From the NCBI RefSeq assembly GCF_003334315.1, contig NZ_QOWR01000114.1: a stretch of DNA of 1,702 nt. One strand, written 5' to 3'. The notes under the pieces are model-generated. The model saw nothing but the letters and a program-made list of their open reading frames with translations. It was not told the origin of the DNA and ran no database searches. Every line of letters begins with the position of its first letter. Position 1 is the first letter of the stretch. Origin of the DNA: Escherichia coli (lineage in GTDB: Bacteria > Pseudomonadota > Gammaproteobacteria > Enterobacterales > Enterobacteriaceae). Shown here piece by piece: positions 147 through 1,688 of the stretch. Made by a program: the position numbers and the translations under genes.

Positions 147-1688
<1,542 letters not shown>

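Follow-up and report, generated by a model that had tools for sequence, protein, structure and literature searches.

A 16S rRNA gene of which the V1 hairpin departs from that of K-12 rrsB raises the question of what this departure represents: an error or a decaying gene, a segment imported from another species, a functionally distinct ribosomal RNA, or ordinary variation among rrn copies, and whether it indicates the operon or the strain from which the gene was derived. The window examined herein (the whole stretch of Escherichia coli DNA that was analysed, 1,702 nucleotides in length) contains an intact and unremarkable E. coli 16S gene with a minority but established V1 variant, and its features are listed in Table 1. 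It starts just within the leader, 3′ of the promoters, and the sequence tgctctttaacaa at positions 3..15 is what we take to be the rrn boxA antitermination sequence. The 16S gene scored 1579.2 bits in the RF00177 model (gathering score 50), covering the model without truncation (1-1533 of 1533), and its 3′ end is intact, with GGAUCACCUCCUUA terminating at position 1688 and the anti-Shine-Dalgarno sequence CCUCC at 1681-1685.

Table 1. Features of the 1,702-nt window (16S numbering equals the window position minus 146)
Feature	Position	Strand	Basis or remark
rrn leader, 5′ of mature 16S	1..146	+	Comparison with K-12 rrnB
16S rRNA gene (E. coli rrs), complete, 1542 nt	147..1688	+	Rfam RF00177; annotation in exact-match genomes
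Helix 6 apical hairpin (V1, 30S 'spur'), 16S 73-97	219..243	+	Fold; Rfam consensus structure
Base pair G222:C239 (16S 76:93)	222..239	+	G·U wobble in K-12 rrsB/H/A/E and E. coli 042 rrnH
Base pair U225:A236 (16S 79:90)	225..236	+	G:C in K-12 rrsB/H/A/E/G, A:U in rrsC/D
Base pair C226:G235 (16S 80:89)	226..235	+	A:U in K-12 rrsB/H/A/E, C:G in rrsC/D/G
CUUG tetraloop, closed by G228:C233	229..232	+	Sequence and folds; invariant across the alleles examined
Bulged G (16S G94) that separates the apical segment of the stem from the lower one	240	+	Folds
16S-23S spacer, initial 14 nt	1689..1702	+	Same in tRNA-Glu and tRNA-Ile/Ala spacer types

Close matches to the window were found in all of the E. 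coli genomes searched (5,426 of 5,426), and 17 or more complete chromosomes of this species are identical to it over 1702 of 1702 bases; all of these carry the 16S annotation. The exact-match copies reside in normal 16S-tRNA-23S-5S operons, such as murI-[16S-tRNAGlu-23S-5S]-murB, or 3′ of clpB or 3′ of gmhB, and the exact 1702-nt sequence occupies rrnB and rrnG (both with tRNA-Glu spacers) as well as rrnH (with a tRNA-Ile/Ala spacer). The suspicion of an error in sequencing or assembly, of a chimera or of a decaying rRNA pseudogene draws on the proneness of rrn repeats to collapse and mis-polishing, and on a few broken-pair combinations (see below) that occur in single assemblies; it is opposed by the identity of the 81-nt allele in 242 independent complete-genome records, by the origin of the 17 or more identical genomes from different laboratories and platforms, and by the perfectly compensatory nature of the changes in a full-length gene with a normal operon context. 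We consider the probability of such an artefact to be negligible. Pseudogene and chimera were rejected, in agreement with the earlier note on this DNA, as the gene is of full length with an intact 3′ end, helix 6 is unbroken and the rest equals K-12 rrsB. As a separate observation on these genomes, 16S matches occur at 3-20 places per genome (median 7), and 11 of approximately 38,000 are on plasmid-typed records; plasmid-borne rrn, rrn copy-number variants or misassemblies are possible sources of the plasmid-typed and atypical counts.

The window was compared base by base with all seven rrs genes of K-12 MG1655. At 221..243 it reads ggaatcagcttgctgattcgctg, and rrsB (NC_000913.3) reads GGAAGAAGCTTGCTTCTTTGCTG, exactly as quoted in the earlier note. 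Over the 1702 bases, the window and rrsB differ at six positions (window/rrsB), 225 (T/G), 226 (C/A), 235 (G/T), 236 (A/C), 239 (C/T) and 136 (A/G), of which the first five are intragenic and correspond to 16S positions 79, 80, 89, 90 and 93; the rest of the 16S is identical to rrsB. The five differences and their positions stand as originally reported. Leader position 136 is G in both rrnB and rrnA of K-12, and lies 11 nt 5′ of mature 16S, close to the 16S 5′ processing region. Within V1, the differences from all seven K-12 copies are confined to the same five intragenic positions.

The K-12 copies carry three V1 alleles, GAAG/CUUC..U (rrsB, H, A and E), ACAG/CUGU..C (rrsC and D) and GCAG/CUGC..C (rrsG), and the window carries a different one, UCAG/CUGA..C, at 16S 79-80/89-90/93. 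The sole pair that separates the window allele from every K-12 allele is 79:90. The rrsC/rrsD allele (GGAAACAGCUUGCUGUUUCGCUG) has the same hairpin, C80:G89, G76:C93 and CUUG loop as the window, but A:U instead of U:A at 79:90, a flip that takes a transversion on both strands, and rrsC as a whole differs from the window at three positions over 1702 bases; from the rrsG allele, the window differs at pair 79:90 alone. In the case of rrsB, the 16S outside V1 and the helix geometry are the same, but three pairs differ (G:C, A:U and G·U against U:A, C:G and G:C in the window), and its hairpin is less stable than that of the window by 3.1 kcal/mol in a 31-nt fold. The choice of rrsB as the yardstick in the earlier note thus led to differences that are real but to a distance that is overstated, because rrsC/rrsD and rrsG are only one pair away. 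Outside K-12, the rrnH allele of E. coli 042 (GGAAUCAGCUUGCUGAUUUGCUG) has U79:A90 and C80:G89 as in the window but keeps U93 (G·U wobble) in place of C93, indicating that the base at position 93 is only partly tied to the two pairs above it. Both forms of the U79:A90 V1 string, with C or T at the variant position, are described by the pattern GGAATCAGCTTGCTGATT[CT]GCTG.

Minimum-free-energy (MFE) folding of 215..245, proposed earlier as a check on the stem, gave a preserved hairpin of -11.3 kcal/mol (z = -3.5 against shuffles), in which the pairs 222:239, 223:238, 224:237, 225:236, 226:235, 227:234 and 228:233 are followed, beyond the bulged G, by 221:241, 220:242 and 219:243. At 16S 83-86, the G(CUUG)C motif is an established tetraloop, reportedly recognized by Woese, Winker and Gutell in 1990. 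The same seven apical pairs appear in the Rfam SSU consensus structure with zero non-canonical marks, and the Rfam structure, the MFE folds and two alignments agree in pairing 16S 76-82 with 87-93 around the four-base loop. All of the changed positions are paired, and the substitutions G79:C90 to U:A, A80:U89 to C:G and G76·U93 to G:C are compensatory, as had been claimed. The last of these was described as the conversion of a terminal wobble: the conversion to G:C is correct, but pair 222:239 is terminal for the apical segment only, three further pairs being formed below the G240 bulge. The five natural E. coli alleles fold to an identical hairpin with MFE values between -8.2 and -13.3 kcal/mol, the window being in the middle of this range.

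Covariation in this helix was analysed within the species and across species. Every cell (100%) is paired in the five E. coli alleles, where both partners change in two of the pairs and a single partner in a third, and the observed covariation score was reached by 3 of 500 shuffles. For the cross-species scan, one genome for each of 100,044 species was searched with a pattern in which the five variable positions were left free, yielding 105 matches in 14 combinations; in all of these, each of the two variable pairs is of the Watson-Crick or G·U kind. At 79:90, the scan matches have A:U, G:C, U:A or C:G, and in none is this pair broken. With 15 distinct variants (13 of them from the cross-species scan), 100% of the cells are again paired and the covariation is 0.349, compared with 0.099 for shuffles (0 of 500 reaching the observed value), while structures shifted by 1-3 columns lower the paired cells to 33-75%. 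As a side observation on actinobacterial assemblies, a short contig assigned to Nesterenkonia haasae (L105, 1-500) is 99.2% identical to the window 16S and one assigned to Nocardioides sediminis (L119, 130-545) is 98.8% identical; both are almost certainly Escherichia-like contamination.

The abundance of each allele in E. coli was estimated using 81-nt queries with a 99% identity band, which amounts to an exact match, and the counts refer to records in which one or more exact copies occur and not to gene copies. The window type (UCAG/CUGA..C) was present in 242 of 5,433 records (approximately 4.5%) and the 042 type (same pairs, with U93) in 331, and the types of rrsB, rrsC/D and rrsG were present in 3,434, 3,570 and 2,584 of the same 5,433 records, respectively. 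The window allele is a minority yet well established in the species.

How such an allele could have arisen is a question in itself, because U:A at 79:90 is unreachable from G:C or A:U via a wobble pair, and either a mismatched intermediate or an import is therefore required. Of the four single-step intermediates with a broken 79:90 pair, a search in the 81-nt context detected G·A in 8 records and U·U and U·C in 2 each, A·A being absent (0 records); altogether, 12 records carry a broken pair, against 573 record-hits for the two paired U:A alleles. The MFE of these broken-pair intermediates ranges from -6.6 to -7.0 kcal/mol. The rarity of the broken combinations, however, also follows from the tight linkage between positions 225 and 236, only 11 nt apart, and is by itself no proof of selection. 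The records with broken 79:90 include UMNK88, BH100 substr. MG2014, 2013C-4974, VG35A2, RM11911, RM13745, RM13752 and 162.2; they could be genuine intermediates, conversion tracts that ended within the hairpin, or artefacts from the polishing of rrn repeats.

A short recombination tract that brought in the V1 segment from another species would easily explain U79:A90, which otherwise takes two transversions without a stable intermediate. Clustered compensatory differences in rrs have been read elsewhere as recombination with foreign DNA (PMC6002687), and U:A at 79:90 does occur in other taxa, where it is combined with U:A at 80:89. Against such an import, the exact 23-mer gave 0 matches and no donor lineage with the same V1 segment was found among the 100,044 species representatives (one genome each, many of them drafts that lack or collapse rRNA genes), and the UC/GA combination was present in 0 of the 105 matches of the degenerate scan (one genome per species). 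Moreover, the remaining 16S is identical to E. coli rrsB, and rrsC/D are one pair away. Given the lack of an exact match in the species representatives, we regard import as very unlikely; origin within E. coli would be the simpler reading of these sequences.

The distribution of the allele among rrn operons was determined operon by operon in two genomes, NCTC11023 (with its operons placed by synteny) and L6-21. NCTC11023 carries the window allele at rrnB only (1 of 7), together with GCAG at rrnE, rrnA, rrnC and rrnG, ACAG at rrnD and GAAG at rrnH. In L6-21, four of the seven operons (rrnG, rrnE, rrnB and rrnH) carry the window allele, and rrnD, rrnA and rrnC hold three other V1 alleles. Each of these two fully profiled genomes therefore contains four V1 alleles among its seven operons, which bears out the earlier attribution of the variant to rrn heterogeneity within a genome or between strains. 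At rrnH, 17MR471 and 2017-19-1CC have the exact window sequence, and FDAARGOS_497 has the window allele combined with the alternative V6 block.

The V6 block (1148-1184; 16S 1002-1038) of the window is of the K-12 rrsB type, and the alternative block, with nine differences (1148, 1152, 1156, 1165-1169 and 1184), is that of K-12 rrsH and of many copies in NCTC11023 and L6-21. Within L6-21, the window V1 allele is linked at rrnG with the rrsB-type V6, making this copy an exact match to the window, and at rrnE, rrnB and rrnH with the rrsH-type V6; the V1 allele and the V6 block assort independently. The occurrence in several operons, the copy number of 1-4 out of 7 and the independence of V1 and V6 together form a signature of short-tract gene conversion and inter-strain recombination. 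The window allele is not diagnostic of an operon, because the identical sequence is found at rrnB, rrnG and rrnH in different strains and the allele is found with either V6 block. Assignment of the window to one operon or strain was likewise ruled out, as the exact sequence occurs at each of these three operons and the two spacer types share the 14 bases present in the window.

Linked differences were also observed in V2 at positions 354, 396, 399 and 419 (16S 208, 250, 253 and 273), where the window is in the rrsB-type state; these differences mark rrsD/rrsG-type copies in K-12, rrnD of NCTC11023, and rrnD and rrnC of L6-21. The leader is polymorphic between operons or strains at 136, 46, 49, 74, 83 and 117. 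V1 had been taken for the only region informative about operon or strain, but this does not hold, since the V6 block, the V2 sites and leader position 136 vary between copies as well.

Several other features were noted in the two genomes. In NCTC11023, btuB (vitamin B12 receptor; L001, 4090-5972), located just 5′ of murI-rrnB, is annotated as frameshifted and is intact in L6-21; a retron defence cassette comprising a reverse transcriptase, a PtuA ATPase and an HNH endonuclease (L014, 15892-19219) adjoins tRNA-Thr, and a P2-like prophage (L013, 7824-37295) is integrated beside ssrA, neither having any bearing on the V1 variant. The P2-like prophage and a T6SS island displace the expected coordinates of rrnG and rrnH in NCTC11023 and of rrnH in L6-21. 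In L6-21, IS1A (L126, 12907-13940) interrupts a DUF1488 gene (yrdB) approximately 1 kb 5′ of rrnD.

With respect to function, the window allele might be distinct in ribosome assembly or in the translation of particular mRNAs, forming specialised ribosomes, and might be kept by selection. Maeda et al. (PMC4696680) speculate on functional heterogeneity of the rrn copies and mention nt 79-93, and sequence changes in the H6 stem modestly alter 16S performance, the spur possibly recruiting late maturation factors (PMC10269663); the range in allele copy number, 1-4 of 7, could be taken in the same sense. The structure is unaltered, however, and its stability is inside the natural range; the allele is rare, scattered over operons and accompanied within a cell by other alleles, and the V1 positions that were altered in the study of PMC10269663 are unmodified and without known interaction partners. 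Functional distinction maintained by selection is extremely unlikely in our estimation. In the same study of helix 6, artificial changes of the H6 stem that preserve the structure slightly lowered the entry of 16S into the 70S and polysome fractions (PMC10269663), and small fitness effects of the natural alleles are possible on this ground. It is highly improbable, nevertheless, that the U79:A90 family (window and 042 types, each in about 4-6% of records) is non-neutral in the sense of subtly altering, by way of the spur, the late maturation of 30S or the use of subunits, with its copy number of 1-4 out of 7 resulting from lineage selection and not from drift plus conversion.

The V1 variant is very probably a case of effectively neutral compensatory variation, spread by short-tract gene conversion and recombination. 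Helix 6 forms the solvent-exposed spur of the 30S body, on which selection may operate mainly through the pairing of the stem and not through the identity of the pairs; in line with this, H6 has been described as a poorly conserved spur that points outward from the body and accepts insertions, tags included (PMC10269663). If selection keeps pairing rather than particular pairs, the window allele should be effectively neutral: U79:A90, C80:G89 and G76:C93 replace G:C, A:U and G·U within the same hairpin, at a stability within the natural range, and the allele persists in E. coli beside three or four further V1 alleles. Gene conversion among the seven rrn operons, together with homologous recombination between strains, would then redistribute it, and the variety of operons, copy numbers and V6 partners is what such movement is expected to leave. 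The pairing, covariation, allele frequencies, operon locations and mosaicism are observed directly in the genomes compared; from these we infer neutrality, and conversion as the mechanism of spread.

The locus provides a textbook case of compensatory change in a variable helix of rRNA and of rrn copies that evolve in a mosaic, concerted manner. Its biological weight is small, and it carries a practical caution for V1-based 16S typing: as one E. coli genome can give four V1 sequences, V1 amplicon variants do not correspond one-to-one with strains or operons. The window allele alone cannot identify the operon or the strain of a read, and serves as a weak lineage marker (approximately 4.5% of complete records).

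Intragenomic micro-heterogeneity of 16S in E. coli was reportedly described by Cilia et al. in 1996 and by Martinez-Murcia et al. in 1999. A text search of a library of papers for the string of the window allele, AATCAGCTTGCTGATT, did not find it. In K-12 W3110, 16S nt 79-93 differ between two groups of operons (Maeda et al. 2015, PMC4696680), a grouping in which D and E are swapped relative to MG1655. Heterogeneity at 16S nt 79-93 in E. coli is already known. The swap of D and E is presumably due to the rrnD-rrnE inversion known in W3110. Short polymorphic segments of rrs with compensatory changes, which spread via conversion of short domains, were described by Espejo and Plaza (2018, PMC6002687), who cite Cilia et al. 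1996 for E. coli. The window allele agrees with this published micro-heterogeneity of E. coli 16S in the region concerned, in the positions that vary, and in the reading of the differences as compensatory changes distributed by conversion.
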